Origin: Escherichia coli
GTDB taxonomy: Bacteria; Pseudomonadota; Gammaproteobacteria; Enterobacterales; Enterobacteriaceae
Direction: 5' to 3' (one strand)
DNA: 64,000 nt
Assembly: GCF_009931435.1 (NCBI RefSeq)
Contig: NZ_CP043414.1
Positions 1,222 to 62,359 of the stretch are shown here, piece after piece. Positions within the stretch are counted from its first letter, which is position 1, and every line of letters starts with the position of its first letter. The notes beneath the pieces are model-generated. The model did no database searches. It was given only the letters and a program-made list of their open reading frames with translations, and was not told the origin of the DNA. The translations under genes and the position numbers were made by a program.

Positions 1222-1227
1222 TTTCAC

Positions 1228-1260
1228 GGGCCGGATGTGCTGTACATCCGGCCCTTTTTT
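1228..1260 (+). terminator. Rho-independent terminator downstream of araE
   Basis: GC-rich inverted repeat gggccggatgt...acatccggccc followed by T6 run. Confidence 0.7.
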
Positions 1261-1349
1261 CGTTAATAGAGATTGGGCACCTGGCCGTTGAGGCGTTTGT
1301 CTCGTTCCTTATTCAGCCTTGTTGCGGTAACACACATCAGGAGAGAGGA

Positions 1350-2042: not shown

Positions 2043-2964
2043 CTGACGACAAAATAGCGTCAAGAGAAGTGACCAGTTTCGGTAATCCCGCTTGTAAATG
2101 CTCACTAAACGCCTGAACCAGCGCTGATGACGGGCGGTGCAGGGGGCGGATCAGGCTGACGGTGAACGGAACCGCAATACTGAACCGCCGTACCACTAAA
2201 CCGCTTGCCGCATAATCCAGTGCGGTGAGCGGGTTAACCACCGAAACACCTACCCCCGCCCGTACCATTGCGCAGACTGATGCGGCGCTGTGGGTTTCTA
2301 CGATCATGCGTCGTTTAACCTGATTCTCAGTAAACAATTGATCCAGCAACTGGCGATAGCTGTCAGTACGGGAAAGGCTGATGTAGTTCTCACCCTGAAA
2401 ATCATCCGGCGTTAATACCTTTTTTACCGCCAGCGGATGATCCGGGGGTAACACACATACTTCATCTAAAGAGAGTAATTCGGTACGTTCTGTTCCCGCA
2501 GGCGTATGGAGTGTCTCGGTGAGTCCTAAATCATGACGCTGGGCCGAGAGCCACTCTTCAAGTAGCGGTGACTCCTGCGGCACGATATTTAAGCTGACAT
2601 CGGGATAACGTGCCAGAAAGGGTTGCAGGAGCTGCGGTAAAAAAGATTGCGAAAAGACCGGCAGGCAGGCAATAGACAGTTCTCCCTGGCGAAACTCGCG
2701 CAGACTTTCTGCGGCACTGACAATGCGATCCAGTCCGTACCAGGATCGTTGCACTTCTTCAAACAGACGCAGTCCTTGCACGGTAGGATGTAATCGTCCA
2801 CGTATGCGCTCAAACAATTTCAGCCCGATCACCTTCTCAAAGCGCGCCAGTTCGCGGCTGACGGTTGGCTGTGAGGTGTGTAGCAGGTGTGCCGCCTCAG
2901 TCAGGCTTCCGGCGGTCATTACCGCATGAAAAATTTCAATATGACGTAAGTTAACGGCGGCCAT
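2029..2964 (-). CDS. lysR: LysR-type transcriptional activator of lysA
   Basis: 311 aa, N-terminal HTH; divergent from lysA. Confidence 0.9.
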
Positions 2965-3085
2965 TAGCGCTCTCTCGCAATCCGGTAATCCATATCATTT
3001 TTGCATAGACTCGACATAAATCGATATTTTTTATTCTTTTTATGATGTGGCGTAATCATAAAAAAGCACTTATCTGGAGTTTGTT

Positions 3086-4348
3086 ATGCCACATTCACTG
3101 TTCAGCACCGATACCGACCTCACCGCCGAAAATCTGCTGCGTTTGCCCGCAGAATTTGGCTGCCCGGTGTGGGTCTACGATGCGCAAATTATTCGTCGGC
3201 AGATTGCAGCGCTGAAACAGTTTGATGTGGTGCGCTTTGCACAGAAAGCCTGTTCCAATATTCATATTTTGCGCTTAATGCGTGAGCAGGGCGTAAAAGT
3301 GGATTCCGTCTCGTTAGGCGAAATAGAGCGTGCACTGGTGGCGGGTTACAATCCGCAAACGCACCCCGATGATATTGTTTTTACGGCAGATGTTATCGAT
3401 CAGGCGACGCTTGAACGCGTCAGTGAATTGCAAATTCCGGTGAATGCGGGTTCTGTTGATATGCTCGACCAACTGGGTCAGGTTTCGCCAGGGCATCGGG
3501 TATGGCTGCGTGTTAATCCGGGGTTTGGTCACGGGCATAGCCAAAAAACCAATACCGGTGGCGAAAACAGCAAGCACGGTATCTGGTACACCGATCTGCC
3601 CGCCGCACTGGACGTGATACAACGTCATCATTTGCAGCTGGTCGGCATTCACATGCACATTGGTTCTGGCGTTGATTATGCCCATCTGGAACAGGTATGT
3701 GGTGCTATGGTGCGTCAGGTCCTCGAATTCGGTCAGGATTTACAGGCTATTTCTGCGGGCGGTGGGCTTTCTATTCCTTATCAACAGGGTGAAGAGGCGG
3801 TTGATACCGAACATTATTATGGTCTGTGGAATGCCGCGCGTGAGCAAATCGCCCGCCATTTGGGCCATCCTGTGAAACTGGAAATTGAACCGGGTCGCTT
3901 TCTGGTAGCGCAGGCTGGCGTATTAATTACTCAAGTGCGGAGCGTCAAACAAATGGGTAGCCGCCACTTTGTGCTGGTTGATGCCGGGTTCAACGATCTG
4001 ATGCGCCCGGCAATGTACGGTAGTTACCACCATATCAGTGCCCTGGCATCTGATGGTCGTTCTCTGGAACACGCACCAACGGTGGAAACCGTCGTCGCCG
4101 GACCGTTATGTGAATCGGGCGATGTCTTTACCCAGCAGGAAGGGGGAAATGTCGAAACCCGCGCCTTGCCGGAAGTGAAGGCAGGTGATTATCTGGTACT
4201 GCATGATACAGGGGCATATGGCGCATCAATGTCATCCAACTACAATAGCCGTCCGCTGTTACCAGAAGTTCTGTTTGATAATGGTCAGGCGCGGTTGATT
4301 CGCCGACGCCAGACCATTGAAGAATTACTGGCGCTGGAATTGCTTTAA
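3086..4348 (+). CDS. lysA: Diaminopimelate decarboxylase
   Basis: 420 aa, PLP-dependent Orn/DAP decarboxylase fold; recognised sequence. Confidence 0.95.
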   Translation: MPHSLFSTDTDLTAENLLRLPAEFGCPVWVYDAQIIRRQIAALKQFDVVRFAQKACSNIHILRLMREQGVKVDSVSLGEIERALVAGYNPQTHPDDIVFTADVIDQATLERVSELQIPVNAGSVDMLDQLGQVSPGHRVWLRVNPGFGHGHSQKTNTGGENSKHGIWYTDLPAALDVIQRHHLQLVGIHMHIGSGVDYAHLEQVCGAMVRQVLEFGQDLQAISAGGGLSIPYQQGEEAVDTEHYYGLWNAAREQIARHLGHPVKLEIEPGRFLVAQAGVLITQVRSVKQMGSRHFVLVDAGFNDLMRPAMYGSYHHISALASDGRSLEHAPTVETVVAGPLCESGDVFTQQEGGNVETRALPEVKAGDYLVLHDTGAYGASMSSNYNSRPLLPEVLFDNGQARLIRRRQTIEELLALELL

Positions 4349-4354: not shown

Positions 4355-5386
4355 TTAGTCGCTGGTTGCATGATGACTTGCCTCCAGCGACGGAGTTGAC
4401 ACTGAATGGCGACGTACCAGCGTCGGACTAAAGACATTAGTGATTTCCGGGAGAGGGCGATTATCAGCCAGCGCCAAAGCCAGTTCGGCAGCCTGGGTCG
4501 CCATCGTCACGATTGGGTAACGCACGGTGGTCAGACGCGGGCGCACATAGCGTGACACCAGCACATCATCAAAGCCAATTAACGAAATCTCACCCGGTAC
4601 TTCAATACCATTATCATTGAGAACGCCCATCGCACCCGCCGCCATTGAATCGTTATAACAGGCTACCGCAGTGAAATTCCTTCCGCGTCCCAAAAGCTCG
4701 GTCATTGCCTGTTCGCCGCCGCTTTCGTCTGGTTCGCCAAATGTCACTAGCCGGTCATTGGCCGGAATACCACTTTCAGCAAGGGCATCGTAATACCCTT
4801 GCAGACGATCTTCGGCGTCAGAAATAGAGTGGTTAGAGCACAGATAACCAATGCGGGTATGACCTTGCTGAATTAAATGACGCGTTGCCAGCCAGGCACC
4901 GTAACGATCGTCCAGAGCAATACAACGGTTTTCAAAGCCAGGCAGGATACGGTTGATCAGCACCATACCGGGCATTTGTTTCATTAATGAGGCTAAATCG
5001 GCATCCGGGATCATTTTGGCATGGACAACCAGCGCAGCACAGCGGTGGCGGATCAGTTGCTCAATGGCCTGACGCTCTTTTTGTTCGTTGTGGTAACCGT
5101 TGCCAATCAATAAAAAATTACCAGTGTGATAAGCCACCTGCTCGACCGCTTTCACCATTGCACCGAAAAACGGATCGGAAACATCACCAACGACCAGACC
5201 GACCGTTTCAGTGGTCTGTTGCGCCAGCGCACGGGCGTTGGCGTTCGGGTGATAACTAAGAGACTCCATTGCACTATGCACAGCCAGCCGGGAGGCTTCG
5301 CTGGCTTTGGGTGAATTATTAATGACGCGGGAAACGGTGGCGACTGAAACGCCTGCCAGTCGGGCTACATCCTTTATGGTCGCCAT
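4355..5386 (-). CDS. galR: Galactose operon repressor, LacI family
   Basis: 343 aa, N-terminal HTH MATIKDVARLAGVSVATVSRV; convergent with lysA. Confidence 0.9.
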   Translation of the reverse strand: MATIKDVARLAGVSVATVSRVINNSPKASEASRLAVHSAMESLSYHPNANARALAQQTTETVGLVVGDVSDPFFGAMVKAVEQVAYHTGNFLLIGNGYHNEQKERQAIEQLIRHRCAALVVHAKMIPDADLASLMKQMPGMVLINRILPGFENRCIALDDRYGAWLATRHLIQQGHTRIGYLCSNHSISDAEDRLQGYYDALAESGIPANDRLVTFGEPDESGGEQAMTELLGRGRNFTAVACYNDSMAAGAMGVLNDNGIEVPGEISLIGFDDVLVSRYVRPRLTTVRYPIVTMATQAAELALALADNRPLPEITNVFSPTLVRRHSVSTPSLEASHHATSD

Positions 5387-9355: not shown

Positions 9356-11011
9356 TCACATTCCCGAAGGGTGCATACCTTTCGGATACTTCACGCTGTA
9401 TGAGAATGGCAGACTCACGTTCTCTTTGCCTGACAGTTTCAGCGTCCAGGACAGTTCACCCGTCTTCGCATCAAACTGTGCCTGGCCATATTGCATTTTT
9501 TCCACCGTAATATCACTGTTAGCACTGACTGGGATCTGGTCGAGTAGAGTGATATCCACCGCTTCGCCGTAGCTGTTCTTTACATTGAGGGTGTAACTGA
9601 AGTTGCGTACCGCGCTGTCGTTAAAGATAGATAACGCATTCTCTTTTTTGAGTACGGCTTTACGCTGAATAATCAGCTTAGGATCGCGGTTAAGCTGAAT
9701 ATCCAGCGACTTACCATCTTCTGGCGGCTGCAAATAGCCCACGCCGGTACGGTTGTTACCAAAGAAGATCTGACTTTCGCCGGGGATTAAATTTAACTGT
9801 TCCCACTCTTTAATTTGCACCTGGAGATACGCGTCATTACTGATCTTCGGAATAGCAAAGAAGCGATATTTACCGCTGACCGACTCTTCCTTAATGACCA
9901 CCGTGCGCGCGGTATTATCGCTGTCGATTTGCCACGGCAGCGAAAGCGCATAGCGGACATTTTGCGCAGTGAAACTTTCTGGTCGAGCCGAAGCTGGCAC
10001 TGCCTGTTCGGCATACTTGCGCCCGGCTTGTCGCTCCCTTGTTTTTTGCATCTCTGCCACCAGGGTTTTCTGCAATTCTGAGGCATCCTGGTTAGACGAA
10101 TATTCCGAACGCTGTTCCATCACGGGTGATGCTGAAAGCGAGCCGCTTACACCACCATACTCCGGAACATCCACATACAGGGTTTCCAGGTGTGGCAACG
10201 TAAGATGAGTATCAGGTTCACTGGTCGAGAGCACGAGATTAACGCCTTTCCAGGGCAACCCCGTATACTGGCGAATATTAGCCTTGTAAACCAGACGCAG
10301 CGGCTGGTTTATGGCAGTGGCGTGAATATCATAGATCGGCGTCCAGGTAGCATCAGGGGTCATATAACGTACCACCGCTTTCGCTGTGACGGCTTTTGGG
10401 GCATAGACCTTAGCGACAATAACCTGCGGATCATTGGCTGCCACCGAATCGCCGTTACTCATGCTCTCGCGTTGCTCCAGCTTTTCAATTTCAAGCTGCT
10501 TATCAGCAAGTTTCTGCGTCAACTCATTGTCGGCTCGTAATAACTCACCATTTTTCTCTTTCACCATTTGCAGATACTTGCCAACTTCGGCGGCACTTTT
10601 ATTGGTTAATGTGCTATTTGCCTCTAATACCTTAATTTGAGCCGCGATATTGTTTTTCTCGGCGGTCAGTTTTGCCTGTTCCACCTTTGCTGCTTTTAAC
10701 TGTTGCTGAATATCTGACGGCAGCGCATTCGGCTGTGTTTCCATTAGCGCGATACGTGAGGAAAGCACAGTCACTCCGTTATCGATAGAAATGGCGATGC
10801 TGTCGTCGGTTACCGAATTGGCGATATTAGTGAAAATAATTTCGCTTTCACCTGCCGGTAAGTTGAGTGTCTCTTCACCTTGTAGGCTGGCACCATGCAG
10901 ATAAACAGTGACGTCTTTGAGTGTTAGCGGTTGAGTTAACTGCGCCCCCCAAGCGGAGGACAGACACCCGGTAAGCAACATGGCGAGGGGAATAGGTTTG
11001 AAAATCAACAT
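9356..11011 (-). CDS. DUF4140/DUF4139-family putative lipoprotein with central coiled coil (MuiA-like); function unknown
   Basis: 551 aa from the ATG at 11011 (RBS aagga 7 nt upstream; ORF-track TTG at 11026 less likely); signal peptide with lipobox LLTGC; DUF4140-like N-terminus, coiled-coil segment, DUF4139-like C-terminus. Confidence 0.75.
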   Translation of the reverse strand: MLIFKPIPLAMLLTGCLSSAWGAQLTQPLTLKDVTVYLHGASLQGEETLNLPAGESEIIFTNIANSVTDDSIAISIDNGVTVLSSRIALMETQPNALPSDIQQQLKAAKVEQAKLTAEKNNIAAQIKVLEANSTLTNKSAAEVGKYLQMVKEKNGELLRADNELTQKLADKQLEIEKLEQRESMSNGDSVAANDPQVIVAKVYAPKAVTAKAVVRYMTPDATWTPIYDIHATAINQPLRLVYKANIRQYTGLPWKGVNLVLSTSEPDTHLTLPHLETLYVDVPEYGGVSGSLSASPVMEQRSEYSSNQDASELQKTLVAEMQKTRERQAGRKYAEQAVPASARPESFTAQNVRYALSLPWQIDSDNTARTVVIKEESVSGKYRFFAIPKISNDAYLQVQIKEWEQLNLIPGESQIFFGNNRTGVGYLQPPEDGKSLDIQLNRDPKLIIQRKAVLKKENALSIFNDSAVRNFSYTLNVKNSYGEAVDITLLDQIPVSANSDITVEKMQYGQAQFDAKTGELSWTLKLSGKENVSLPFSYSVKYPKGMHPSGM

Positions 11012-41788: not shown

Positions 41789-41865
<77 letters not shown>

Positions 41866-41898
41866 TCACCGTACTGCTTTACTTCATCAAATTTTGAT

Positions 41899-41975
<77 letters not shown>

Positions 41976-42008
41976 TCACCGTACTGCTTTACTTCATCAA
42001 ATTTTAAT

Positions 42009-42085
<77 letters not shown>

Positions 42086-49210: not shown

Positions 49211-49942
49211 TCAGGCTGTTACCAAAGAAGCCGCAACCTGGCGCTCATCAGAAATAATGTGCGTGACCTCATCCAGATGCCCGATGCGGGCTTCCCCTGA
49301 ACGATTAAATTTACTTTTATCAATCAATAACAACGATTGCGCGGCACGTTTTAATAGCATCGATTTGTAATCAGCGTTGATGGCATTGGAGTCCCACAGT
49401 GCACCGCTGCTATCGATCCCTTCACAAGAAAAAATAAACAGATCGATTTCCAGCGATTTAAGTTGGGAAATCAGCGAGGGATTGACGTAACAGCCATATT
49501 TGCGCTCAAGTGTGCCGCCGGAACTGATCAGTTGAATGCGTTCACGTTTACCGAGTTCATGGCAAATCGGATGGCTATTGGTGAAGACCTGAATGTCGAT
49601 GTCAGGCAACTGGCGTGCCAGATACCAGCAAGTTGAACTGGCGTCTAAGGCTATCACCATCCCTTCTTCAATCCACGCGAGCGCTTCGCGCGCGATATCT
49701 GCTTTATGCGCATAATGGCTTTTCAGCCGGATGTGAAAGGGATCGCCACTGTCTTGATTTTGACGGTGGATATATTTAGCGCGCCCATGATTGCGCAGAA
49801 TTTTACCCTGCGTCTGTAATTCATTGAGATCGCGACGAATGGTTTCTTTACTGACCTTTAGCTGTTCAGAGAGAGCTTCCGTGGTCAGGCTGGTATGGTT
49901 CAGCAGCAGGTCGACTATCGCTTGCTGGCGTGCCGCTTTCAT
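49211..49942 (-). CDS. fucR: L-fucose operon activator, DeoR family
   Basis: 243 aa from the ATG at 49942; N-terminal HTH, DeoR C-terminal domain. Confidence 0.9.
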   Translation of the reverse strand: MKAARQQAIVDLLLNHTSLTTEALSEQLKVSKETIRRDLNELQTQGKILRNHGRAKYIHRQNQDSGDPFHIRLKSHYAHKADIAREALAWIEEGMVIALDASSTCWYLARQLPDIDIQVFTNSHPICHELGKRERIQLISSGGTLERKYGCYVNPSLISQLKSLEIDLFIFSCEGIDSSGALWDSNAINADYKSMLLKRAAQSLLLIDKSKFNRSGEARIGHLDEVTHIISDERQVAASLVTA

Positions 49943-49999
49943 ATTTTTCACCCCATCATTCGATAACCGCCCGCGTCATGCGGGCGTACCGGTATGAGA

Positions 50000-50422
50000 T
50001 TACGGTGTTACCCCTTTTTTTAAAAGAATATTCCCGTACTTCGCTCGTTCGCCTGTGATAACGATCGCAAAGGCTTTTTGCGCCCGCTCATAAAACGCAA
50101 AACGATTGATGCGGATGATGTCAGGACAGGGGGCTTGTAGTGAAAGCGCATTACGATAACGTCGTTCTACTTCAGGATCGAGAGTGTCACCTTCTACCGC
50201 CGCCATCATCACCAGCGGCGGTGCATAACTGTCCAGTTCAAATAACGGGATAATCGCCTGGAGTAAGTCGCTCACCAACAGGCCATCAGCACGGATCACC
50301 TGCGGTCCCATCGAATGGGCGGGAAAGTGAGCATCGGAAAAAATAATTTCATCTCCATGTCCCATCTCTGCCAGCACTTTCAATAGTTCGGGAGAAATTA
50401 ACGGCGAAATTGTTTTCAGCAT
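50000..50422 (-). CDS. fucU: L-fucose mutarotase
   Basis: 140 aa RbsD/FucU family. Confidence 0.9.
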
Positions 50423-50423
50423 T

Positions 50424-51842
50424 TCACACTTCCTCTATAAATTCAGGTTCAGTTTGTGGGTAGAAATAACGGTACTGATAATGAATCTGCGCGCGAGCTT
50501 CTTCCGGGCTGTTAAATTCCCCTACGCCATACCAACCGAACAGCGCAGCTCCTGCGACGGTCGTTTCGGCGTCGTCGAGAACTTTTACCGGAATATCAAG
50601 CATATTGGCTTTAATCTGATTCCACAATGTGTTGCGACTTCCTCCACCTACTAACAATAATTCAGAGGCTTTAAAGTGCCCGATTTTTTCCAGCATCTGT
50701 AGATTGCGCTGTAATTGCGCGGTTAACCCTTCCAGCGCCGCGCGATAGAAATGTCCGCGCGTGGTATTGAGCGTCACTCCTTGCCAGCCAGCGTTCTGAC
50801 ACGACAATAAATCACACTGCATTTTCACGCCATCCGCGCCAGGCGCGATCAGACGAGCCTCTTCAATCAACATTTGCCAGGGCGTTTCAGTAGTCCAGAA
50901 CAGTTTTCTCACCCATTCCAGCACGCCGGATGCCAGCCATTGCATACCGGGGTTATACAATCCTGCCTGGCTATCCAGTTCGCAGGTGGAACCGGCGTAC
51001 TGACTTAGCAGTGAAGTATCAACCTGCGTACTGCGGACCATTAAAATTTCCCAGGTACCGGAAGAGAGCACGGGTTCATTTTGTTCGGCACCAGCACCAA
51101 AAAGGGCGAACTGGGTATCATGACCTGCAGAAATTACCGGTATGCCAACGGGTAAGCCGAGCATTGCTGCGGCGCTGTTCTGTAGCGTACCAATCTGTTC
51201 ACCCGCTTCCACCAGACGAGGGAAGAGTCGGCGTGGAATACCGGTGGCTTGTAAAATTTGCGGACTGAAATCGCGTTGCTGGATATCCAGCATCTGGCTG
51301 GTTCCGGCCATCGTGATATCAGTAGTGAATTCGCCGGTTAAACGGTGGTTAATCAGCGACGAAATAAAGAGCCAGGCGTGCGCGCGTTCCAGCAGTTGTG
51401 GATGATTTTCTTTCAACCACACCAATTTATATAACGTATTGAAACTAAAGGCTCCGACGCCAGAAATAGCCTGCAACTGCTGTGCGGAGATCAACCGTTC
51501 AATATTGTCCATTACCGCTGCTGTTCGCGGACATTTCCAGCTAATGATCGGATAGAGCAAATCGCCTTGCTTATCTACCAGAGCGCCATCCACACCAAAG
51601 GTGGTGACGGCGATACCGCGGATGTGGCATTCAGTCAGTTCACTATTGATTTGCCGACAGCAATCAGCAAAGCGTTGCAAAATGGCGTCTAAAGACCACT
51701 GGTGCCAGGTGTTGTTTTCCATCGCGATATCGCTGGCATTAGGCGTTGAGGCGCGGGCAACAATTTTTCCCTGCCGATTAACCGCGATGGCCCTGACATT
51801 GGTTGCGCCACAGTCGAGTACCAGGATAACTTCTTGTTTCAT
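50424..51842 (-). CDS. fucK: L-fuculokinase (FGGY family)
   Basis: 472 aa from the ATG at 51842 (strong RBS aggag 7 nt upstream); the ORF-track start at 51872 has no RBS and sits in a hairpin. Confidence 0.9.
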
Positions 51843-51858
51843 AATCGCTCCTGCAATA

Positions 51859-51886
51859 TAGCCGGATAACATTGTTTATCCGGCTA
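51859..51886. other. Perfect 11-bp inverted repeat in the fucI-fucK intergenic region
   Basis: tagccggataa-cattgt-ttatccggcta. Confidence 0.4.
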
Positions 51887-51950
51887 ACCACTCTTGCTTG
51901 TTCAGGCCCGGTAGCCGGAGCGACCGGGCATCACATCAGGGAGTAATGTA

Positions 51951-53726
51951 TTAACGCTTGTACAACGGACCGTAGTTCTGGCAAGCGCGGTAATCCAGGC
52001 CTTCAATATCCATGCCGTGCGCAGCCCAGGCAGAAGGACGATACACTTTGGTCTCTTCAACGTTGTGCATACATACCGGGATACGCAGCATGGAGGCGAG
52101 AGTGATAAAGTCTGCGCCAACGTGGCCGATGGTCAGAACCCCATGGTTAGCGCCCCAGTTCGCCATTACCGAGTACACATCCGTAAACGGCCCTTTACCG
52201 GTGAGGCGCGGTGCAAACCAGGTGGTTGGCCAGGTTGAGTTGGTGCGTTTGTTGAGGATGTCATGCACATCCTTCGGTAACTCAACGCTCCAGCCTTCCG
52301 CGATTTGCAGTACCGGTCCCAGGCCTTTGATGATGTTGACACGGGTCATGGTGAACGGGACACCGCCTTCAGTAAGGAAGCGGGAAGAGTAACCACCGCC
52401 ACGGAAATATTCGTGGATAGCCGGGCACCATTCGGTCGCGGCGAGGCAAGCGTCAGCCTCTTGCTGAGAGATTTCCCAGTGCGGCTTCATCGTCGGTTTA
52501 CCTTCGCTGTCGCGTTGTTTACAGGATCCGTCCAGCGCAGCAGAACCGGAGTTGATCAAGTGGATGATGCCGTGTTCTGCCAGTCCGTCCAGTTTATGCC
52601 CCGTTACTCGCTCAATTGCTTCTGGTGACCAGTAGGTACGCACATCGGCAAATACCTGAGCGGTACCGGTGAGCTGGTGGCCCATTAGCATTGCCACGCC
52701 GTTAAGACTGTCGTTTTCGGTCGCCACGACGAAGGGTTCACGCACGCCATTCCAGTCAAATGAACTGTTAAGGATCGCTTCGGCGGTGTCGCCATTGGGA
52801 TATTGATCGGTCCAGTGACGTTGTCCCTGGAAGCCCGCAGCGATGGCGTTGTAGCCAAGTGATTCTTCCACGCGACCAATATCGGCCAGTTTGCTGTTGC
52901 CTTGCATCATGTCGCGGATACACATCGCCATCAGTAAACTTTCGCGTAGAACTGCGCGGCTTTGCTCGGCATTGCGTTGATACTGTTTGTTATTTTCATC
53001 TTCGCCATAGCGGAAGTTTTTATCAGCCCAGGCCAGCGCCATTTCCAGTTCTGCTTCGTCGTAAATCTTCTGATCAATACGGCGACGCAGTTCGGTCATA
53101 TCCACCGCCTGGACTTTCATTCCCAGCCAGGATTCAAAGAAGTTGTGGTCAACGATGGAACCGGCGATCCCCATCGAAACGCCGCCCAGCGACAGATAGC
53201 TTTTACCTTTCATACTGGCGACTGCCAAACCGGCGCGGGCAAAGCGCAGCAGTTTTTCTTCAACGTCGGCAGGAATCGATGTGTCATCGGCATCCTGAAC
53301 GTCATGACCGTAAATGGAGAATGCCGGGATGCCTTTCTGGCTGTGAGCTGCCAGAGCCGCTGCCAGGTAAACAGCGCCGGGACGTTCAGTGCCGTTAAAG
53401 CCCCAAATGGCTTTCGGGCGGGTAGGGTCCATGTCAATGGTTTCACTGCCATAGCACCAGCAAGGCGTTACCGTAATGGTGAGGCCTACATTCTGGCTGC
53501 TGAATTTTTCTTCGCAAGCAGCAGCTTCAGCCATACCCGCGATACAGGTATCGGAAATGACACACTCGACGGCAGCTCCGCAGGCATGGCGCAGTTTCTC
53601 GGTCAGCAGTGCGGCCGTAGCTTTCGCCATATTCATTGTTTGTTCTTCAAGCGACTCACGAACACCCATGCGACGACCGTCAATAACCGGGCGGATACCA
53701 ATTTTCGGTAACGTATTAATTTTCAT
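51951..53726 (-). CDS. fucI: L-fucose isomerase
   Basis: 591 aa; recognised sequence. Confidence 0.95.
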
Positions 53727-53808
53727 CAGGATTCCTCATCTCGCTTTATTGGCGCTCTGCTAAGGCGGAGAAAGGAAACCACCGAAGCAGTAGTATTGGT
53801 CATTATTT

Positions 53809-53824
53809 GCTAACTCGAGTTAGC
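53809..53824. promoter_or_regulatory. 16-bp perfect palindrome GCTAACTCGAGTTAGC, putative operator (copy 1, 83 bp upstream of fucI)
   Basis: Exact self-complementary 16-mer; an identical copy lies 239 bp away. Confidence 0.45.
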
Positions 53825-54047
53825 TTAGGTTTGTAGGCTTTTTATGCACAACTTTTTTGTTGTTGAAATGTGAGGGGCTTCACGAGAAGTGGTTAAAATA
53901 CGATCTCTGTCAAATTATTATTTAGCGGGATAAAAATAAATTTTACGTATAATCAAATGGTTATTAGATTTTAATGGTTATGCATCACAGTTTTAACTCA
54001 AATGATTTGGCTAATTTGTATACCTAAAATAGCTTTAAAAGGCGATC

Positions 54048-54063
54048 GCTAACTCGAGTTAGC
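54048..54063. promoter_or_regulatory. 16-bp perfect palindrome GCTAACTCGAGTTAGC, putative operator (copy 2, 133 bp upstream of the ABC ATPase gene)
   Basis: Identical to copy 1; immediately preceded by the palindrome gcgatcgc. Confidence 0.45.
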
Positions 54064-54195
54064 AAAATGCGAAGAATAGATTGATACGATGAATATTTAT
54101 TCAAAGGTTATTCGTATCACAGTGGAGATGGCTTTAGTAGCGACGTTTATGCCGTACTTCACATTTTCAGTTTCTGATTATTGAGGAAAGCTGCA

Positions 54196-55695
54196 ATGTC
54201 CGAAACATTTTTGCAAATGAAGCATATCACCAAACGCTTTCCTGGAGTGTTGGCGCTTAATGACGTGCAATTTACCCTACGCCGGGGCGAGGTTCATGCA
54301 TTATTAGGTGAAAATGGTGCAGGAAAATCTACATTAATGAAAATTTTGTCGGGGGTTTATCAACCTGATGAAGGCGAAATAATTTTTGAAGATAAATTAG
54401 TCTCATTTTCTGATCCGTTAAGTGCGCAAAACGTAGGTATTACTATTATTCACCAGGAATTTAATTTATTTCCCGAGCTTACAGTAGAAGAAAATATTTT
54501 TATCGGCAGGGAGTTTTGTAAAAAAAATCGCTGGCGTCTGGATGAGAAACAGCAACGCAAGGCGACGATTGAAATTTTGCAAAAATTAAATTTGGCGATC
54601 AAACCAGATACTCTGGTTGCCGACCTTACGGTAGCTCAACAACAGATGGTAGAAATTGCCAAGGCCATTTCGGTTAACGCCAGGATTCTCATTATGGATG
54701 AACCTACTGCGGCGTTAACAGAAACTGAAATTGAAAGCTTATTTCGCGTCACCCGGTTATTGAAAGAACAGGGGACCGGCATTGTGTATATATCCCACCG
54801 TCTGGAAGAGTTGGCGCTAATTGCCGACCGCGCGACTGTAATGCGTGATGGTCAGTACATCAGCACAGTAGATTATGAGTGCGTAAAAATCAGCGATCTG
54901 ATTGCCATGATGGTTGGTCGCGATTTAGGGAATATCTATCCCCGCCGCGAGGCCATACAGCAGCGGATGCCGGTTCTGGAGGTCAACGGACTGACGCGCA
55001 AAGGCGTACTGAACGATATTAATTTTACGCTTTATCGTGGCGAGATCCTCGGCTTTGCCGGACTGATGGGGGCAGGTCGTACTGAACTTGCGCGTGCGAT
55101 TTTTGGTGCGGACTCCATTGACAGCGGAACGCTAAAGTTAAATGGTAAGGAAACCGTTATTAAAGATATTTCGGATGCTATTCAGCAGGGAATTAGTTAC
55201 CTGACGGAAGACCGAAAAAAAGAAGGGTTGGCACTGAATTTATCTGTTGAACGAAATATTATGTTAGGAAATTACCCTGAGTATTCCGATCGTTTTGGGA
55301 ATGTCGATTCGCGTCGTTGCCAACAAACCAGTGAGGAACAGGTAAAAGCGTTAAGGATTAAAACGCCAAATCTTGAACAGGCTGCATTAAATCTAAGTGG
55401 AGGAAATCAGCAGAAAATTATAATTGCACGTTGGGTGTGTAAAGATACTGATATTTTAATCTTCGATGAACCCACTCGCGGCATTGATGTTGGCGCCAAA
55501 CTGGAAATCTATGAGTTAATGAATCGCCTGGTGGCAAAAGGGAAATCAATCATCATGATCTCCTCTGAATTGCCGGAGGTGTTAGGAATGTGCGACCGTA
55601 TTTTAGTGATGCGCAGTGGTCGAATTACTGGCGAACTTAGCGCAAATGAAGCGACACAAGAAAAAATCATGCAATACGCGACGTTAGAGGATTAA
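54196..55695 (+). CDS. Sugar ABC transporter ATP-binding protein with two NBDs (RbsA/MglA/XylG-like)
   Basis: 499 aa from the ATG at 54196 (RBS gaggaaag); Walker A GENGAGKST and a second NBD. Confidence 0.85.
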   Translation: MSETFLQMKHITKRFPGVLALNDVQFTLRRGEVHALLGENGAGKSTLMKILSGVYQPDEGEIIFEDKLVSFSDPLSAQNVGITIIHQEFNLFPELTVEENIFIGREFCKKNRWRLDEKQQRKATIEILQKLNLAIKPDTLVADLTVAQQQMVEIAKAISVNARILIMDEPTAALTETEIESLFRVTRLLKEQGTGIVYISHRLEELALIADRATVMRDGQYISTVDYECVKISDLIAMMVGRDLGNIYPRREAIQQRMPVLEVNGLTRKGVLNDINFTLYRGEILGFAGLMGAGRTELARAIFGADSIDSGTLKLNGKETVIKDISDAIQQGISYLTEDRKKEGLALNLSVERNIMLGNYPEYSDRFGNVDSRRCQQTSEEQVKALRIKTPNLEQAALNLSGGNQQKIIIARWVCKDTDILIFDEPTRGIDVGAKLEIYELMNRLVAKGKSIIMISSELPEVLGMCDRILVMRSGRITGELSANEATQEKIMQYATLED

Positions 55696-55698
55696 ATT

Positions 55699-56682
55699 AT
55701 GACTATCTCTGTAACCTCTCCAGACAGCAATAATAAGAAAATAAAGATAAATAAAGAACTTTTGATGCGCCTTGCGCCTCTTTTTAGCTTAATTATATTA
55801 GTGCTGTTTTTTAGTTTCAGCTCTCCCTTTTTCTTTAATACCGAAAATATCATGACGATTGCTCTGCAAACGTCGGTTATCGGCATTATGGCCATTGGGG
55901 TAACTTTCGTCATTATTACCGCGGGCATCGATCTTTCATTGGGTTCCGTGGTGGCTTTTTCTGGTGTCGCCGTGGGGATTTGCGCCACACTGGGCCTGCC
56001 GCTGCCAGTGTGTATTATTGCCGGTGTTTTAGCCGGTGGAATGTGCGGCTATGTGAATGGTTTGTTGGTCACTAAAATGACTATTCCACCGTTTATCGCT
56101 ACCTTGGGCCTGATGATGTCCGTCAGAGGTATCAATATGGTGATGACCGACGGGCGCGCCATCTATTTTGCCGATTACCCGATGTTCAAAACGCTCGCTC
56201 AGGGACGCTTGTTTGATGTGCTGCCTTATCCTGTTTTCTACCTGGTCATTGTGGCGCTTGTCGGCGCTTACATCCTGAAGAAAACGGTTATTGGTCGCTA
56301 TGTCTATGCCGTAGGCAGTAATGAAGTTGCTGCTCATCTTTCTGGTATTAAAGTTCAGCGCGTGAAAATTTTCGTCTATGCCTTCTGTGGTTTATTAACC
56401 GGGATTGCGGGTGTCATTCTCGCTTCTCGTCTCAACTCCGGACAACCGACGGTGGGTGTGGGTTATGAGCTGGAAGCTATTGCTGCGGTAGTGATCGGCG
56501 GAACCAGCTTAATGGGCGGTATTGGCACTATTGGCGGCACAATCATTGGCGCTTTCATTATGAGTGTACTGAAAAATGGCCTCAATTTAATGGGGGTCTC
56601 TCAGTTCTGGCAAATGGTCGCGATGGGCGTAGTTGTGGTCGCTGCCGTTTACCTCGATACATTACGCAAAAAGATTCGTTGA
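55699..56682 (+). CDS. Sugar ABC transporter permease (RbsC-like)
   Basis: 327 aa, multi-TM; starts 3 bp after the ATPase stop. Confidence 0.85.
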   Translation: MTISVTSPDSNNKKIKINKELLMRLAPLFSLIILVLFFSFSSPFFFNTENIMTIALQTSVIGIMAIGVTFVIITAGIDLSLGSVVAFSGVAVGICATLGLPLPVCIIAGVLAGGMCGYVNGLLVTKMTIPPFIATLGLMMSVRGINMVMTDGRAIYFADYPMFKTLAQGRLFDVLPYPVFYLVIVALVGAYILKKTVIGRYVYAVGSNEVAAHLSGIKVQRVKIFVYAFCGLLTGIAGVILASRLNSGQPTVGVGYELEAIAAVVIGGTSLMGGIGTIGGTIIGAFIMSVLKNGLNLMGVSQFWQMVAMGVVVVAAVYLDTLRKKIR

Positions 56683-56755
56683 CTTAGGCTCCCTGTTTTA
56701 TCGGGAAACAACTGCCCTGACGTTAAGGGTGATTCACTCAGAACGGAGTACAACA

Positions 56756-57706
56756 ATGAAAACCAGGCATTTTATCTATGCGTTATCTCTGCTGGCTTGC
56801 GTAAGTTCCAGCGCACTGGCGAAGGATTTAAATCTTCCGGTTGTTAGTAAAGGTTTCCAACATGAATTCTGGCAAACCGTAAAAATGGGGACTGAAGCTG
56901 CGGCTAAAGAGTTGGGGGATAAAACCAGCTATGTTGGCCCGGCTGATGAAACGCAAATAGCCGAGCAAATTCAGTTAGTCGAAAATGCGATGGCGCAGAA
57001 ACCGAATGGCTTGCTTCTGGCAGCCCTCGACGCGAATGCGCTCGCCCCACTGGTAGAAACGGCAAATTCACGCGGTATCAAAGTGGTGACCTTTGATTCA
57101 GGCATCAATTCAGACATTCCGGTGAGTTTTGTCGCCACCAATAACCGTAAAGCAGGTGCTCAGGCAGCTGATGCCTTAGCTGCGCAGGTAAATAATAAAG
57201 GGAAAGTTGGGATTATCGCGCACGTTGCAGGAACATCTTCCGCTATTGAACGCTCGGAAGGCTTCATGGAGCGTATGAAAGAAAAATATCCTGACATTAA
57301 AGTCTTACCCGTTCAGTACAGCGATGGTGACCCGCAAAAAGCGATGGATAAAACTATCGATATGATTCAGGCCAATCCCGATCTTGCTGGGATCTATGGC
57401 ACCAATGAAGGTTCAACGCTCGGGGTGGCGAATGCCATTGATAGCCAGAATCTGAAAGGTAAGGTGAAGGTCATTGGTTTTGATAGTACGGAAGCGATTA
57501 TTAACTTCCTGAAGAACGGGGTCATTCAGGGCTTTGTTGTTCAGGATGCATACCAGATTGGCTATCAAGGGATCAAAACGTTGAACGCGGCCCTTTCGGG
57601 GCAAGCCGTTGAAAAAGAGATCGATATTCCCGTGAAATTTGTTAATGCCGAGAATATTAACACGCCAGAAATCGACAAACTCCTGCACCCATTCGGTAAG
57701 AAATAA
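56756..57706 (+). CDS. Periplasmic sugar-binding protein (RbsB-like)
   Basis: 316 aa from the ATG at 56756; signal peptide MKTRHFIYALSLLACVSSSALA; type-I periplasmic binding fold. Confidence 0.85.
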   Translation: MKTRHFIYALSLLACVSSSALAKDLNLPVVSKGFQHEFWQTVKMGTEAAAKELGDKTSYVGPADETQIAEQIQLVENAMAQKPNGLLLAALDANALAPLVETANSRGIKVVTFDSGINSDIPVSFVATNNRKAGAQAADALAAQVNNKGKVGIIAHVAGTSSAIERSEGFMERMKEKYPDIKVLPVQYSDGDPQKAMDKTIDMIQANPDLAGIYGTNEGSTLGVANAIDSQNLKGKVKVIGFDSTEAIINFLKNGVIQGFVVQDAYQIGYQGIKTLNAALSGQAVEKEIDIPVKFVNAENINTPEIDKLLHPFGKK

Positions 57707-57759: not shown

Positions 57760-59340
57760 ATGCACAACGGTTATTTTCTCGGTGTCGATGTCGGATCGGC
57801 CAGTGTCAGGGCAGGCGTTTACAGTGCCAGTGGCCACAGGCTGGCATTCGCTACTGCGCCCGTCTCCCAGTTTCGCCCTGGCGGCGAGCGTGTCGAACAG
57901 TCTTCGGCAGAGATCTGGCAACAAGTTTGTAAAACGGTGAAAGAGGCGACAGCTTTGGCAGGCATCCCCATTTCCGCAATTCGCTCACTGGGTTTTGACG
58001 CTACCTGCTCGCTGGTTGTTCTTGATGAACAAGGCCAGGGTTTAGCGGTTTCGTCCGGTGGATCTGCGAATCACGACATTATTATGTGGATGGATCATCG
58101 TGCAACTGTCGAGACGGCGCAGATTAACGCAACGAAGGATCCCGTATTGCGCTACGTTGGCGGCGAAGTGAGCGTCGAGATGGAGTTACCAAAGTTACGT
58201 TGGTTGAAGACGCATCTACCGCAAACCTGGCAGGCCGCTCATCGCTTTTTCGATCTGGCGGATTTTCTGGTCTGGAAAGCAACAGGGCGAGACGTCGCGG
58301 GATTGTGCACGCTAACGTGTAAATGGAATTATCTGGCTCATGAACAACGCTTTAGCCATAGCTTACTGGAATCGGTAGACCTGACCGACATGCTCGAAAG
58401 AATTCCCGCCGAAATTCTTCCGCCTGGTGCTGCCGTGGGAACTTTAACTGCCACAGCTGCTGAAGAATTAGGATTAACGACCAATGTTATCGTGGCCAGT
58501 GGTTTGATTGATGCCCATGCCGGTGGCATGGCGCTGGCTGGCGCGCAGCCATCAGGAACGCTGGCATTGATAAGCGGAACGTCGAATTGCCACATGTTGT
58601 GCAGTGAAAAAGAAATATTCACCCCTGGCGTCTGGGGGCCATACTGGTCGGCCATGTTGCCAAATTACTGGCTAACTGAAGGCGGGCAAAGCGCCGCAGG
58701 GGCGCTGGTGGAGTGGACGCTTCAGGAGTCCGGGGCAAGCGCAAATCTTTTTAACAAGGCGCAGCAACGCGGGTGTCATCCGATTCAACTGATTAATGAA
58801 TGGGTAGCCGCCCTGGAAGCTAACGAGTCAGAACCCACACGAAATTTACATGTGCTTGCCGATCATCACGGCAACCGTTCGCCACGAGCGCGGCCCGATG
58901 CCAGAGGCAGTGTTTATGGCTTAACACTGGAGCGTGGTGAAAATCAGCTCGCGCGGCTTTATCTTGCGACTTTACAGGCAATAGCCTTTGGCACCAGACA
59001 TATTATTGAAACTCTGCGGGAAAATGGGCATACCATTACCCGATTAACATTATGTGGTGGTGCAACGCACAACCCTTTATGGCTACGCGAATATGCAGAC
59101 GTGACAGGTTGCGATATCCACCTGATGCAAGAAGAAGATGCCGTTACGTTGGGCGCAGCAATTAGCGGCGCTGTTGCCAGCGGAGCATGGGGGGATTTTA
59201 CATCTGCGTGTAAAGCAATGGTTGAAGCCGGAGAGGTTATTCAGGTAAATCCACAACGCCGTGAATTTTTAGAGCGTAAATACCGGGTTTACCTGACGCT
59301 TTGGGAGCAACAACAGGCGGTTAACCAACTGATGCAATAA
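57760..59340 (+). CDS. FGGY-family pentulose/carbohydrate kinase (D-ribulokinase-like)
   Basis: 526 aa from the ATG at 57760 (RBS ggagg); N-terminal GVDVGSASVR motif. Confidence 0.8.
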   Translation: MHNGYFLGVDVGSASVRAGVYSASGHRLAFATAPVSQFRPGGERVEQSSAEIWQQVCKTVKEATALAGIPISAIRSLGFDATCSLVVLDEQGQGLAVSSGGSANHDIIMWMDHRATVETAQINATKDPVLRYVGGEVSVEMELPKLRWLKTHLPQTWQAAHRFFDLADFLVWKATGRDVAGLCTLTCKWNYLAHEQRFSHSLLESVDLTDMLERIPAEILPPGAAVGTLTATAAEELGLTTNVIVASGLIDAHAGGMALAGAQPSGTLALISGTSNCHMLCSEKEIFTPGVWGPYWSAMLPNYWLTEGGQSAAGALVEWTLQESGASANLFNKAQQRGCHPIQLINEWVAALEANESEPTRNLHVLADHHGNRSPRARPDARGSVYGLTLERGENQLARLYLATLQAIAFGTRHIIETLRENGHTITRLTLCGGATHNPLWLREYADVTGCDIHLMQEEDAVTLGAAISGAVASGAWGDFTSACKAMVEAGEVIQVNPQRREFLERKYRVYLTLWEQQQAVNQLMQ

Positions 59341-59404: not shown

Positions 59405-60403
59405 ATGGCTAAAACAGTAGAGCAGATAGCCAGCGACCTGAATTTATCGGTTACGACCGTGCGACTGGTGCTAAATGGAAAAGCGGAACAATATCGAATC
59501 AGCGTCAAAACCCAAACGCGTATCAATGAATATGTTGAACGCTATGGTTATATCATTAATCATTCCGCTCGCAGCCTTAAGCTTAACAAAACTGATACAT
59601 TAGGGTTGATTGTTCCCAACATATCCAACGTCTTTTTTGCTACGCTGGCAGAAAAACTCGAACAACGCTGTCGACGTTCCGGATATCAACTTACAATCAG
59701 TTGCACTTATGATGATGTTGACTATGAAAATAAATTGACGAAAGCATTTATCGCACGAAATGTAGATGGTCTTTTTATTGTTCCTTCGACGCTGGAAAAT
59801 CAGCAGCATCATTTACGCAAAATTCGTAAGCCAATGGTTTTACTCGATCGTGATTTTAAATATACCGATAACGCATTGGTAGAGAGTAATAATATTTCTG
59901 GCGGAGAAAAGCTGACGCAAAATATTCTTGAGGCCGGGCAGGCTCCAGTATGGTTTTTGCTGGGAGATGCCGGTTTGCCGAGTATCAGCGATCGTCTGAC
60001 AGGTTATTTGAATGCGTTGGCAAAAAAAGGGATTACCCATCGCGATTGGGTGCGGGAAGGTCCGGTAAATACTCCGGAAGGCGGCTATGTCATTATGGAA
60101 AAACTCATTGAAGAGCAGGGATGTCCGCAGGCATTTATCGCCTCGTCTTTACCTGTGCTTGAAGGCGCTGTCCGCGCGATTCGCGACCGTCTTGGCGCTG
60201 TACCGCCAGAAATCAATATTGGCACTTTCGATGAACATCCTATGCTGGGATTTCTCGCCAACAATGTCTGGTCAATGCAGCAGGATGAAAATGCCTGGGC
60301 AGAAAAAGCGTTCGAAATGATGTTAAGCGCGATCGAAGAAAGACCAGTAAAAAAAACAGTTAAAGTAGAAATGAAATTAATTAAGCGCATAAGAAAAAAA
60401 TAA
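59405..60403 (+). CDS. LacI-family transcriptional regulator
   Basis: 332 aa; N-terminal HTH TVEQIASDLNLSVTTVRLVLNG; periplasmic-binding-like effector domain; AT-rich codon usage by eye. Confidence 0.85.
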   Translation: MAKTVEQIASDLNLSVTTVRLVLNGKAEQYRISVKTQTRINEYVERYGYIINHSARSLKLNKTDTLGLIVPNISNVFFATLAEKLEQRCRRSGYQLTISCTYDDVDYENKLTKAFIARNVDGLFIVPSTLENQQHHLRKIRKPMVLLDRDFKYTDNALVESNNISGGEKLTQNILEAGQAPVWFLLGDAGLPSISDRLTGYLNALAKKGITHRDWVREGPVNTPEGGYVIMEKLIEEQGCPQAFIASSLPVLEGAVRAIRDRLGAVPPEINIGTFDEHPMLGFLANNVWSMQQDENAWAEKAFEMMLSAIEERPVKKTVKVEMKLIKRIRKK

Positions 60404-60535
60404 TAATCGCCAAAAGATATCAGGCTACTGAACAATGATATTCAGTGGCCTCCCCTTACTAAAAATAACCCCGTCTTCATTTGCGGTGCTGTTTTACGCA
60501 ACAAGGCGAGCTGAAACTGTATCTGGAGAATAGAA

Positions 60536-61183
60536 ATGGAAAGAACACGTTTATCCCGTGAAATAATTGAAACCTGTCTGGAAATGACGCGCCTTGGGTT
60601 AAATCAGGGGACAGCGGGGAATGTCAGCACACGTTTTGAAAACGGCATGTTGATTACTCCCAGCGGTATTCCTTATGAAAGAATGACGGAGAATATGATT
60701 GTCTATGTTGATGGCAACGGCAAATACGAAGAAGGTAAGATTCCTTCCAGCGAATGGCGTTTCCATATGGCGGCCTATCAAAGCAGACCGGATGCCAACG
60801 CGGTTGTTCACAATCATGCCGTTCATTGCACGGCAGTTTCCATTCTTAACCGACCGATCCCTGCTATTCACTACATGATTGCGGCGGCTGGCGGTAATTC
60901 TATTCCTTGCGCGCCTTATGCGACCTTTGGAACTCGGGAACTTTCTGAACATGTTGCGCTGGCTCTCAAAAATCGTAAGGCAACTTTGTTACAACATCAT
61001 GGGCTTATCGCTTGTGAGGTGAATCTGGAGAAAGCGTTATGGCTGGCGCATGAAGTTGAAGTGCTGGCGCAACTTTACCTGACGACCCTGGCGATTACGG
61101 ACCCGGTGCCAGTGCTGAGCGATGAAGAGATTGCCGTAGTGCTGGAGAAATTCAAAACCTACGGGTTACGGATTGAAGAGTAA
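60536..61183 (+). CDS. fucA: L-fuculose-1-phosphate aldolase (class II aldolase)
   Basis: 215 aa; C-terminal two-thirds match FucA as I recall it, N-terminal ~68 residues appear diverged. Confidence 0.85.
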   Translation: MERTRLSREIIETCLEMTRLGLNQGTAGNVSTRFENGMLITPSGIPYERMTENMIVYVDGNGKYEEGKIPSSEWRFHMAAYQSRPDANAVVHNHAVHCTAVSILNRPIPAIHYMIAAAGGNSIPCAPYATFGTRELSEHVALALKNRKATLLQHHGLIACEVNLEKALWLAHEVEVLAQLYLTTLAITDPVPVLSDEEIAVVLEKFKTYGLRIEE

Positions 61184-61210: not shown

Positions 61211-62359
61211 ATGGCTAACAGAATGATTCTGAACGAAACGGCATGGTTTGGTCGGGGGGCTGTTGGAGCTTTAACCGATGAGGTGAAACGCCGTGGTTAT
61301 CAGAAGGCACTGATCGTCACCGATAAAACGCTGGTGCAATGCGGCGTGGTGGCGAAAGTGACCGATAAGATGGATGCTGCAGGGCTGGCATGGGCGATTT
61401 ACGATGGTGTAGTGCCCAACCCGACAATTACTGTCGTCAAAGAAGGGCTTGGTGTATTCCAGAGTAGCGGTGCGGATTACCTGATCGCTATTGGTGGTGG
61501 TTCTCCACAGGACACGTGTAAAGCGATTGGCATCATCAGCAACAACCCGGAATTCGCCGATGTGCGCAGTCTGGAAGGGCTTTCCCCGACCAATAAACCC
61601 AGTGTACCGATTCTGGCAATCCCCACCACAGCAGGCACTGCGGCAGAAGTGACCATTAACTATGTGATCACTGACGAAGAAAAACGACGCAAGTTCGTTT
61701 GTGTTGATCCGCATGATATCCCGCAGGTGGCATTTATTGACGCTGACATGATGGATGGTATGCCGCCTGCGCTGAAAGCCGCGACGGGTGTCGATGCGCT
61801 CACTCATGCTATTGAGGGGTATATTACCCGTGGCGCGTGGGCGCTAACCGATGCACTGCACATTAAAGCGATTGAAATCATTGCTGGGGCGCTGCGAGGA
61901 TCGGTTGCTGGTGATAAGGATGCCGGAGAAGAAATGGCGCTCGGGCAGTATGTTGCGGGTATGGGCTTCTCGAATGTTGGGTTAGGGTTGGTGCATGGTA
62001 TGGCGCATCCACTGGGCGCGTTTTATAACACGCCACACGGTGTTGCGAACGCCATCCTGTTACCGCATGTCATGCGCTATAACGCTGACTTTACCGGTGA
62101 GAAGTACCGCGATATCGCGCGCGTTATGGGCGTGAAAGTGGAAGGTATGAGCCTGGAAGAGGCGCGTAATGCCGCTGTTGAAGCGGTATTTGCTCTCAAC
62201 CGTGATGTCGGTATTCCGCCACATTTGCGTGATGTTGGTGTACGCAAGGAAGACATTCCGGCACTGGCGCAGGCGGCTCTGGACGATGTTTGTACCGGTG
62301 GCAACCCGCGTGAAGCAACGCTTGAGGATATTGTAGCGCTTTACCATACCGCCTGGTAA
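61211..62359 (+). CDS. fucO: L-1,2-propanediol oxidoreductase (lactaldehyde reductase), iron-containing ADH
   Basis: 382 aa from the ATG at 61211 (an ATG at 61208 is also possible); recognised sequence. Confidence 0.9.
   Translation: MANRMILNETAWFGRGAVGALTDEVKRRGYQKALIVTDKTLVQCGVVAKVTDKMDAAGLAWAIYDGVVPNPTITVVKEGLGVFQSSGADYLIAIGGGSPQDTCKAIGIISNNPEFADVRSLEGLSPTNKPSVPILAIPTTAGTAAEVTINYVITDEEKRRKFVCVDPHDIPQVAFIDADMMDGMPPALKAATGVDALTHAIEGYITRGAWALTDALHIKAIEIIAGALRGSVAGDKDAGEEMALGQYVAGMGFSNVGLGLVHGMAHPLGAFYNTPHGVANAILLPHVMRYNADFTGEKYRDIARVMGVKVEGMSLEEARNAAVEAVFALNRDVGIPPHLRDVGVRKEDIPALAQAALDDVCTGGNPREATLEDIVALYHTAW

Follow-up and report, generated by a model that had tools for sequence, protein, structure and literature searches.

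Twin 16-bp palindromes as probable operators of a Cra-related LacI-type repressor in the Escherichia coli B/C-type fucose locus

We propose that two identical 16-bp perfect palindromes in a variant fucose locus of Escherichia coli are operators of a LacI-type repressor of the Cra/FruR subfamily that is encoded within the same locus, and the comparative evidence makes this assignment highly probable. The DNA analyzed is a stretch of 64,000 nucleotides (contig NZ_CP043414.1, assembly GCF_009931435.1), hereafter the window, and it contains the known E. coli B/C-type fucose locus. When the whole window was scanned, the palindrome GCTAACTCGAGTTAGC was found as two exact copies, termed O1 (53809-53824) and O2 (54048-54063), in the intergenic region that separates fucI from a divergent operon for an ATP-binding cassette (ABC) transporter, the pentulose kinase DarK and the regulator itself. 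The regulator gene is at 59405-60403, where the initial annotation had placed it. The natural reading is that the fucIKUR and transporter operons would be under joint control, with one site for each of the two divergent promoters, and the comparative evidence favors this suggestion of the initial annotation as well.

The two copies start 239 bp apart, their identity is confined to the 16 bp, and no further match with three or fewer mismatches occurs elsewhere in the window. O1 lies 83 bp from the ATG of fucI (53726) and O2 ends 133 bp ahead of the RefSeq ATG of the transporter ATPase gene (54196), so that the positions of the twin 16-mers and all three distances given in the initial annotation were recovered exactly. 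Its value of 454 bp for the length of the intergenic region holds if the ATPase gene is taken to start at an upstream TTG (54181), whereas the annotated ATG gives 469 bp, and its description of the region as AT-rich agrees with a GC content of 35.8%, compared with 50.4% for the window. A single 16-bp perfect palindrome is unremarkable in this window, in which four are observed and 0.84 would be expected from shuffled sequences, and the other two (at 12646 and 51277) are unrelated singletons. On the other hand, ~2e-4 exact copies of a given 16-mer are expected per 772 kb, and two identical copies 239 bp apart are not explained by chance. Each is symmetric about a central TCGA and has the even length (within ~14-20 bp) and central CpG of LacI-family operators, and by every feature that could be tested the pair appears to be of the LacI family.

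The evidence that carries our proposal is that the 16-mer tracks the regulator across at least nine genera, and it is this comparative evidence that bears out the choice of the LacI-family protein as the binder in the initial annotation. Orthologs that are 70-91% identical to the regulator are found in Citrobacter, Salmonella, Buttiauxella, Pluralibacter, Yokenella, Atlantibacter, Superficieibacter and others, and the site co-occurs with them across genomes in the manner of a phylogenetic footprint. Intergenic regions between fucI and the ABC transporter that have two sites at a spacing of 238-240 bp are present in E. coli, Escherichia whittamii, Salmonella, many Citrobacter, Pluralibacter, Atlantibacter, Buttiauxella, Lelliottia, Affinibrenneria and Enterobacter hormaechei. 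The Salmonella locus has the E. coli layout with two exact sites, while Citrobacter amalonaticus has a fucRUKI / ABC-regulator-fucA arrangement that lacks darK, with two exact sites 240 bp apart. Pluralibacter lignolyticus has this same layout without the DeoR-type fucR, and its two sites, each with one mismatch, are 239 bp apart. In Atlantibacter, where darK is present and the DeoR-type fucR is absent, O1 has two mismatches and O2 is degenerate (GCTACGTCGACGCAGC). Sites are also kept in the clusters of Lelliottia and E. hormaechei, which, like those of Pluralibacter and Atlantibacter, have no DeoR-type fucR. The regulator adjoins fucI in Superficieibacter, with one exact site at fucI/regulator and a second 4.1 kb away, upstream of a GH172-MFS operon. 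Yokenella has one site, located upstream of a transporter/alpha-L-fucosidase/regulator operon, and a single operator is found at the loci of Acerihabitans and Sodalis, in which the transporter and fucI are in one operon. The 16-mer was not found in K-12, which has no such regulator.

More distant relatives of the regulator point in the same direction. Paralogs from Serratia fonticola and Sodalis are 57% identical to the E. coli regulator overall but almost identical to it over residues 1-70, and at their loci the 16-mer recurs, with 0-3 mismatches, ahead of both their operons and the paralog genes themselves, which is the pattern expected if that domain reads that sequence. The operon next to the paralogs is a distinct one, encoding a DarK-like FGGY kinase, a protein of ~550 residues without a Pfam match, a DHDPS-family enzyme, sometimes a BNR protein, and MFS transporters, and together with the 16-mer it was found in Serratia, Sodalis, Brenneria, Silvania, Mangrovibacter and others; the sites are at 4424-4439 and 9934-9949 in one such stretch and at 2238, 8165 and 9931 in another. 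The paralogous regulator and the same 16-mer probably control that operon.

We also scanned one genome from each of 100,044 species (298 Gbp) for the exact 16-mer and found it in 53 stretches, 42 of which adjoin homologs of fucI, the transporter, DarK or the regulator. Two copies are present in 16 of the 53, and in 15 of these 16 (Citrobacter species and E. whittamii) they are spaced by 239-240 bp in the fucI/ABC intergenic region. Several genera, as well as three metagenome contigs of betaproteobacteria, have a site that precedes a DarK-like kinase gene by less than 100 bp. The betaproteobacterial contigs have the exact 16-mer at stretch positions 6833, 91, 1126 and 1793, with two having it directly upstream of the DarK-like kinase and three having a LacI-family gene (31-39% identity) on the same stretch, which suggests that the pairing of operator and kinase extends past the Enterobacterales. 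A Bacteroidales metagenome contig contains six sites (588-3707) of the form G(C/T)TAAC(N)CGAGTTAGC, paired 91 bp apart. No homolog of the regulator was detected in that stretch, and these sites may represent an unrelated regulon with a similar motif.

The regulator (WP_001140843.1) is a protein of 332 residues that shows full-length matches to TIGR02417, Cra and PurR-type models and structures, and it is thus a nearby LacI-family protein with an N-terminal helix-turn-helix domain and a hinge. Its best family match is TIGR02417, the fructose-repressor subfamily, and its closest solved relatives are Cra proteins. It falls below the curated cut-offs of both NF008452 (Cra; 217 versus 385 bits) and TIGR02417 (235 versus 390 bits), and hence it is a relative of Cra/FruR but is itself neither of the two. 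In its DNA-binding domain it carries the three-residue insertion of the Cra type (QYR), and the recognition helix reads SVTTVRLVLNG, compared with SRTTASYVING in Cra. The hinge sequence, ARSLKLNKT, resembles that of PurR, ARSLKVNHT. Residues 4-328 align to residues 2-327 of the 340 residues of PurR, end to end, and in this alignment a C-terminal heptad extension for tetramerization of the LacI type was not found.

The surroundings of the two palindromes were compared in alignments of five and then eight genera together with E. hormaechei, and promoters were assigned by conservation alone. Elements resembling -35 and -10 hexamers and CRP sites are at fixed distances from O1 and O2 in the nine genera, while the spacers and leaders vary. 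O1, which has 0-2 mismatches and is at the same place in all nine, overlaps the predicted -10 element and start of the fucIKUR promoter. The predicted -10 hexamer, TAAGCT (53822-53827, minus strand), shares 3 nt with O1 and is found as TA(A/T)GCT at a fixed position in the nine genera, with its T-A...T positions invariant. It would be preceded, across a variable spacer of 18 nt, by the -35 hexamer TTGTGC (53846-53851, minus strand), represented by TTGTnn at O1+37 in the nine genera. Transcription of fucI is predicted to start near 53815, about 7 nt after the -10 element, such that O1 would span positions from roughly -9 to +7. A CRP-type site, TGTGAGGGGCTTCACG (53869-53884), has one mismatch to TGTGA-N6-TCACA and would be centered 61.5 bp upstream of that start, which is a class I position; its TGTGA...TTCACG is invariant at O1+60 in the nine genera. 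For the transporter operon, the predicted plus-strand elements are the -35 hexamer TTGGCT (54007-54012; TTG(G/T)C(T/G) at O2-41/42 in nine genera), a variable spacer of 17 nt, and the -10 hexamer TAGCTT (54030-54035; TAnnnT at O2-18/19 in nine genera), with a predicted start near 54042. O2, which is kept in eight of the nine genera and degenerate in Atlantibacter, would thus occupy positions from about +7 to +22. A second, half-degenerate CRP-type site (53974-53989) would be centered ~60.5 bp upstream of the transporter start. Downstream of O2 the leader ranges in length from 40 to 150 nt, and O1 is separated from fucI by 83-94 nt. This architecture suggests two lac-like promoters placed back to back, each with a CRP-type site ~61 bp upstream.

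From the sites, their co-occurrence with the regulator and its paralogs, and the conserved architecture around them, we infer binding, repression and a mode of control as follows. A repressor dimer on O1 would cover the -10 element and start of the fucIKUR promoter, and a dimer on O2 would be located just downstream of the start of the promoter for the ABC transporter, darK, the regulator and fucAO, so that the two operators together would shut off both transcription units with each dimer blocking its own promoter. As the repressor gene is inside the repressed operon, negative autoregulation would result. An inducer derived from L-fucose or D-arabinose would free the repressor, and cyclic AMP-CRP would then activate both promoters and provide catabolite control. 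In this lineage of E. coli, it is this module that would now stand in for fucP and for the FucR/CRP control region of K-12. L-Fucose and D-arabinose reportedly induce the fucose enzymes and D-ribulokinase coordinately in E. coli B, the inducers are said to be, apparently, the sugars themselves and not their 1-phosphates, and constitutive mutants reportedly affect the fucose enzymes and D-ribulokinase together. Coordinate induction and joint constitutive mutants are what one shared repressor would give.

Several observations weigh against this proposal. The species scan returned about 69 sites in its 53 stretches while about 69 would be expected in uniformly random sequence, a count that is not above chance; the raw number of 16-mers in 298 Gbp is uninformative and only their placement is non-random. 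A simple scan with the sigma-70 consensus missed the proposed hexamers and gave two chance-level matches, both in the AT-rich spacer, which leaves conservation of the hexamers across genera as the sole basis of the promoters. The second CRP-type site has one good half only, since conservation is limited to the promoter-proximal TCACA (53985-53989; invariant at O2-63/64 in nine genera) and one G, and its assignment to CRP is tentative. The intact DeoR-type fucR (49211-49942) could still contribute to control. Literature searches on the regulator by text string, locus tags and keywords returned no study of its binding, footprint, transcription starts or mutants; searched as a text string, GCTAACTCGAGTTAGC itself matched only short hairpin RNA constructs, and the part of a LacI-family regulon compendium that was covered has no Enterobacterales fucose entry.

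A more elaborate version of repression would have a repressor complex bridging O1 and O2, perhaps over DNA bent by IHF, and looping out both promoters in a repressosome of the GalR type in which neither operator represses well alone. What speaks for it is a constrained spacing, as O1 and O2 are held 238-240 bp apart in nine genera and the AT-rich center is kept at 99-101 bp with an identity of only ~52%, whereas outside the operators the flanks differ by tens to more than 100 nt. Within this variable AT-rich spacer there is a candidate IHF-type bend site, AATCAAATGGTTA (53951-53963, plus strand), that agrees with all nine specified positions of WATCAANNNNTTR. At the same offset from O1, four of the nine genera score 8-9 of the nine positions, and the T-C-A...T-A columns are invariant, but the match is a weak one as AT-rich DNA easily fits that consensus. 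The fixed spacing, moreover, partly follows from the fixed distances between operator, promoter and CRP-type site, and a distance of 239 bp corresponds to 22.8 turns at 10.5 bp per turn or ~21.5 turns at 11.1, with no clear phasing. The regulator has no tetramerization tail of the LacI type, each operator is already placed to block its own promoter, and the single operators of Acerihabitans and Sodalis and the operators 4.1 kb apart at separate operons in Superficieibacter fit poorly with bridging. Looping is thus possible but not required, and we consider it unlikely that repression depends on it.

The palindromes might instead be bound by another protein, either the global regulator Cra or the DeoR-type FucR, with the local LacI-family protein acting elsewhere. 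The regulator is a relative of Cra, the Cra operator, with its GCT...AGC ends and central CG, shares length, outer triplets and center with GCTAACTCGAGTTAGC, and fucR is intact in the window. Yet Cra is present in all of these bacteria including K-12, while the 16-mer is absent unless the specific regulator or one of its paralogs is encoded, and the recognition helix differs from that of Cra. As for FucR, the sites persist in clusters without fucR, and TGACCG/CGGTCA boxes, which resemble FucR sites, number five in the K-12 fuc control region and none in the regulatory regions of the window. We regard binding by either of these proteins as very unlikely. Even less probable, to the point of being negligible, is that the palindromes function as RNA hairpins of a terminator or leader or are a dispersed repeat or recombination scar. 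A pattern scan did flag O1 as terminator-like on the plus strand, and O1 of Affinibrenneria carries a symmetric double change (GCTAATTCGAATTAGC), but the hairpins are weak (-6.5 to -8.3 kcal/mol with a 6-bp stem, two of the three being no better than shuffled sequences at z -1.3 to -1.4), the U-run of an intrinsic terminator is missing when they are read in the transcribed orientation, O1 is at the promoter and not in the leader, one-sided changes that break pairing, such as GCTAACTCGAATTAGC, are common, and no Rfam match was obtained at E values up to 1. An RNA function was rejected on the weak hairpins and the Rfam result. A widespread repeat unrelated to this locus, which the initial annotation had named as the outcome that would speak against an operator, is not what was found: the window has two copies in one place, the region occurs once per genome, on the chromosome, in 381 of 5,426 E. 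coli genomes, identity stops at 16 bp, no Citrobacter genome in the species scan has the 16-mer outside this locus, and most of the stretches found in that scan are linked to fuc, DarK or regulator genes. A repetitive extragenic palindromic (REP) or miniature inverted-repeat transposable element (MITE)-like repeat and a mobile-element scar were rejected as being incompatible with this locus-specific distribution.

The genes of the locus are arranged in the order fucR-fucU-fucK-fucI on the minus strand (49211-53726, with fucI at 51951-53726), and these are native to E. coli, being 97-100% identical to K-12 up to the fucI ATG. On the plus strand are the ABC sugar transporter that replaces fucP (54196-57706; ATPase 54196-55695, permease 55699-56682, binding protein 56756-57706), the FGGY pentulose kinase (57760-59340; TIGR01315 above its cut-off) that is DarK, the D-ribulokinase of E. 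coli B, then the regulator, fucA (60536-61183) and fucO (61211-62359). The nearest relatives of the transporter proteins are components of the RbsA/RbsC type, and among solved structures the binding protein is most closely related to 4RXT and 4WUT, which were reportedly solved with D-arabinose and D-fucose. The gap between the regulator and fucA is only 28-141 nt across genera, and fucA and fucO are therefore probably on the same transcript as the regulator. Directly after the regulator stop codon, in the interval 60404-60535, there is an inverted repeat, ACTGAA-N8-TTCAGT, without a T-run, which may act as a weak attenuator or else be a binding site before fucA. A nested inverted repeat, GATACGA...TCGTATC around TGAATA..TATTCA, is present at 54083-54118 in the transporter-operon leader and is probably dispensable, because Pluralibacter lacks that part of the leader. 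Elsewhere in the window, three tandem tRNA-Met (CAT) genes with a spacing of 110 bp are on the minus strand at 41789-42085, as in the metZWV cluster.

Homology with K-12 ends at position 53738, which is 12 nt upstream of the fucI ATG, and restarts at 60557 inside fucA, so that fucP and the whole 546-bp K-12 fuc control region have been replaced by 6.8 kb of other DNA. The fucA gene is chimeric, with 26-27 mismatches per 100 nt to K-12 over its first ~200 nt (60536-60735), which are imported, and 0-7 per 100 nt over the native remainder. One recombination junction of the imported segment is thus inside fucA and the other 12 nt before the fucI ATG, and the combination of a chimeric fucA with a native fucI indicates that the segment entered by recombination from a donor that already had the fucI-module-fucA layout. 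A comparison with K-12 (blastn at word size 7 and a k-mer comparison) found no shared control elements other than AT-rich 9-10-mers. The view in the initial annotation of a cassette, and of native fucose genes placed under a foreign repressor, is correct in that the DNA was imported into E. coli, but the regulator is resident in the alternative fucose cluster of Citrobacter, Salmonella, Enterobacter, Pluralibacter, Atlantibacter, Buttiauxella and Lelliottia, and in several such clusters it is the only regulator. The gene darK is missing from the otherwise identical clusters of C. amalonaticus, Pluralibacter and Buttiauxella. In Enterobacter, Pluralibacter, Yokenella and Superficieibacter the cluster is between cyoE and yajQ. 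The sole plasmid match is a 362-kb replicon of E. hormaechei (NZ_CP056156.1, 140514-158773) that contains the cyo operon, the LacI-type fuc cluster and yajQ. It resembles the chromosomal context seen in Pluralibacter and Yokenella, a plasmid origin of the cluster was rejected, and the replicon may be a chromid or an assembly artefact. The gene fucR is intact, the K-12 control region on which FucR acts has been replaced, and FucR may have been left without targets in this lineage.

The arrangement is present in 381 of 5,426 complete E. coli genomes (~7%), in one copy each and always on the chromosome, and these include E. coli C and B strains. Its gene content has already been published: the ABC transporter was described as a substitute for fucP in 50 of 1,058 genomes including BL21, whose fucI transcript level on fucose exceeds that on glucose (PMC10221146), an observation that favors our proposal, and DarK of E. 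coli B was placed within the fuc locus (PMC12307932, PMC6150544). No regulator, promoter or operator of the variant locus is mentioned in PMC10221146 or PMC12307932, and what we newly propose here are its probable regulator and operators. This provides a likely regulator and binding sites for a locus whose content is published and whose control is undescribed, together with a testable regulatory model for fucose and D-arabinose utilization in the ~7% of complete genomes that include B/BL21 and C. It bears on the old question of how E. coli B strains use D-arabinose and suggests that regulation, in addition to the DarK enzyme, separates D-arabinose-positive B strains from K-12. Going further, the imported repressor module, by replacing an activator circuit in which FucR responds to fuculose-1-phosphate, might allow B and C strains to express the fucose enzymes and DarK on D-arabinose without mutation, with a GalR-like repressosome, its 100-bp center perhaps bent by IHF, coupling the two promoters and with fucR left without targets. 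We put this wider scenario forward tentatively, as its several parts taken together seem rather doubtful, but if it were true the source of darK would be a fucose cluster of the Citrobacter/Enterobacter type that was recombined in through fucA. The mechanism itself would be an ordinary, textbook genetic switch, and a compact repressor-operator pair with a defined 16-bp site could serve as a fucose- or arabinose-responsive switch.

Among known systems, the closest likeness is to lac, as the predicted elements would amount to a lac control region that has been duplicated back to back and supplied with a local repressor related to Cra. As with LacI, its O1 operator and CRP at -61.5, the predicted layout of both promoters would combine a weak sigma-70 promoter with a CRP-type site ~61 bp upstream and a palindromic operator at or just after the start. 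The differences from lac are that two such promoters would be back to back, each with one identical primary operator, that the repressor gene is within the regulated operon, that the repressor has no tetramerization tail, and that the operator sequence is another one. Cra/FruR is the closest relative by family model and by solved structures, and it shares the QYR insertion and a 16-bp operator with a central CG; the Cra consensus, GCTGAAAC/GTTTCAGC, has GCT/AGC ends like the operators here. The regulator of the variant locus, however, has an identity of ~40% or less overall, different residues in the recognition helix, a half-site of GCTAACTC in place of GCTGAAAC, and a local, cluster-specific role in contrast to the global role of Cra. 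In the gal system (GalR, OE/OI and HU), two operators of a dimeric LacI-family protein likewise bracket a promoter region, and in both cases a site for an architectural protein may lie between them, but the spacing is 113 bp and not 239 bp, and the operators of the fucose locus flank two divergent promoters and not one promoter pair. The rbsDACBKR operon with RbsR also has a LacI-family gene in a distal position in an operon for an ABC transporter and a kinase that the encoded protein represses, or here would repress, from a start-proximal operator, the differences being the sugar, the operator sequence and the presence here of a second operator on the divergent catabolic operon. Finally, the K-12 fuc regulon (fucPIKUR and fucAO under FucR and CRP) has the same enzymes, chromosomal site and divergent layout, but in the variant locus fucP and the 546-bp control region are gone and candidate FucR boxes are absent, and control is predicted to be exerted by a repressor of another family and not by FucR, an activator of the DeoR type.

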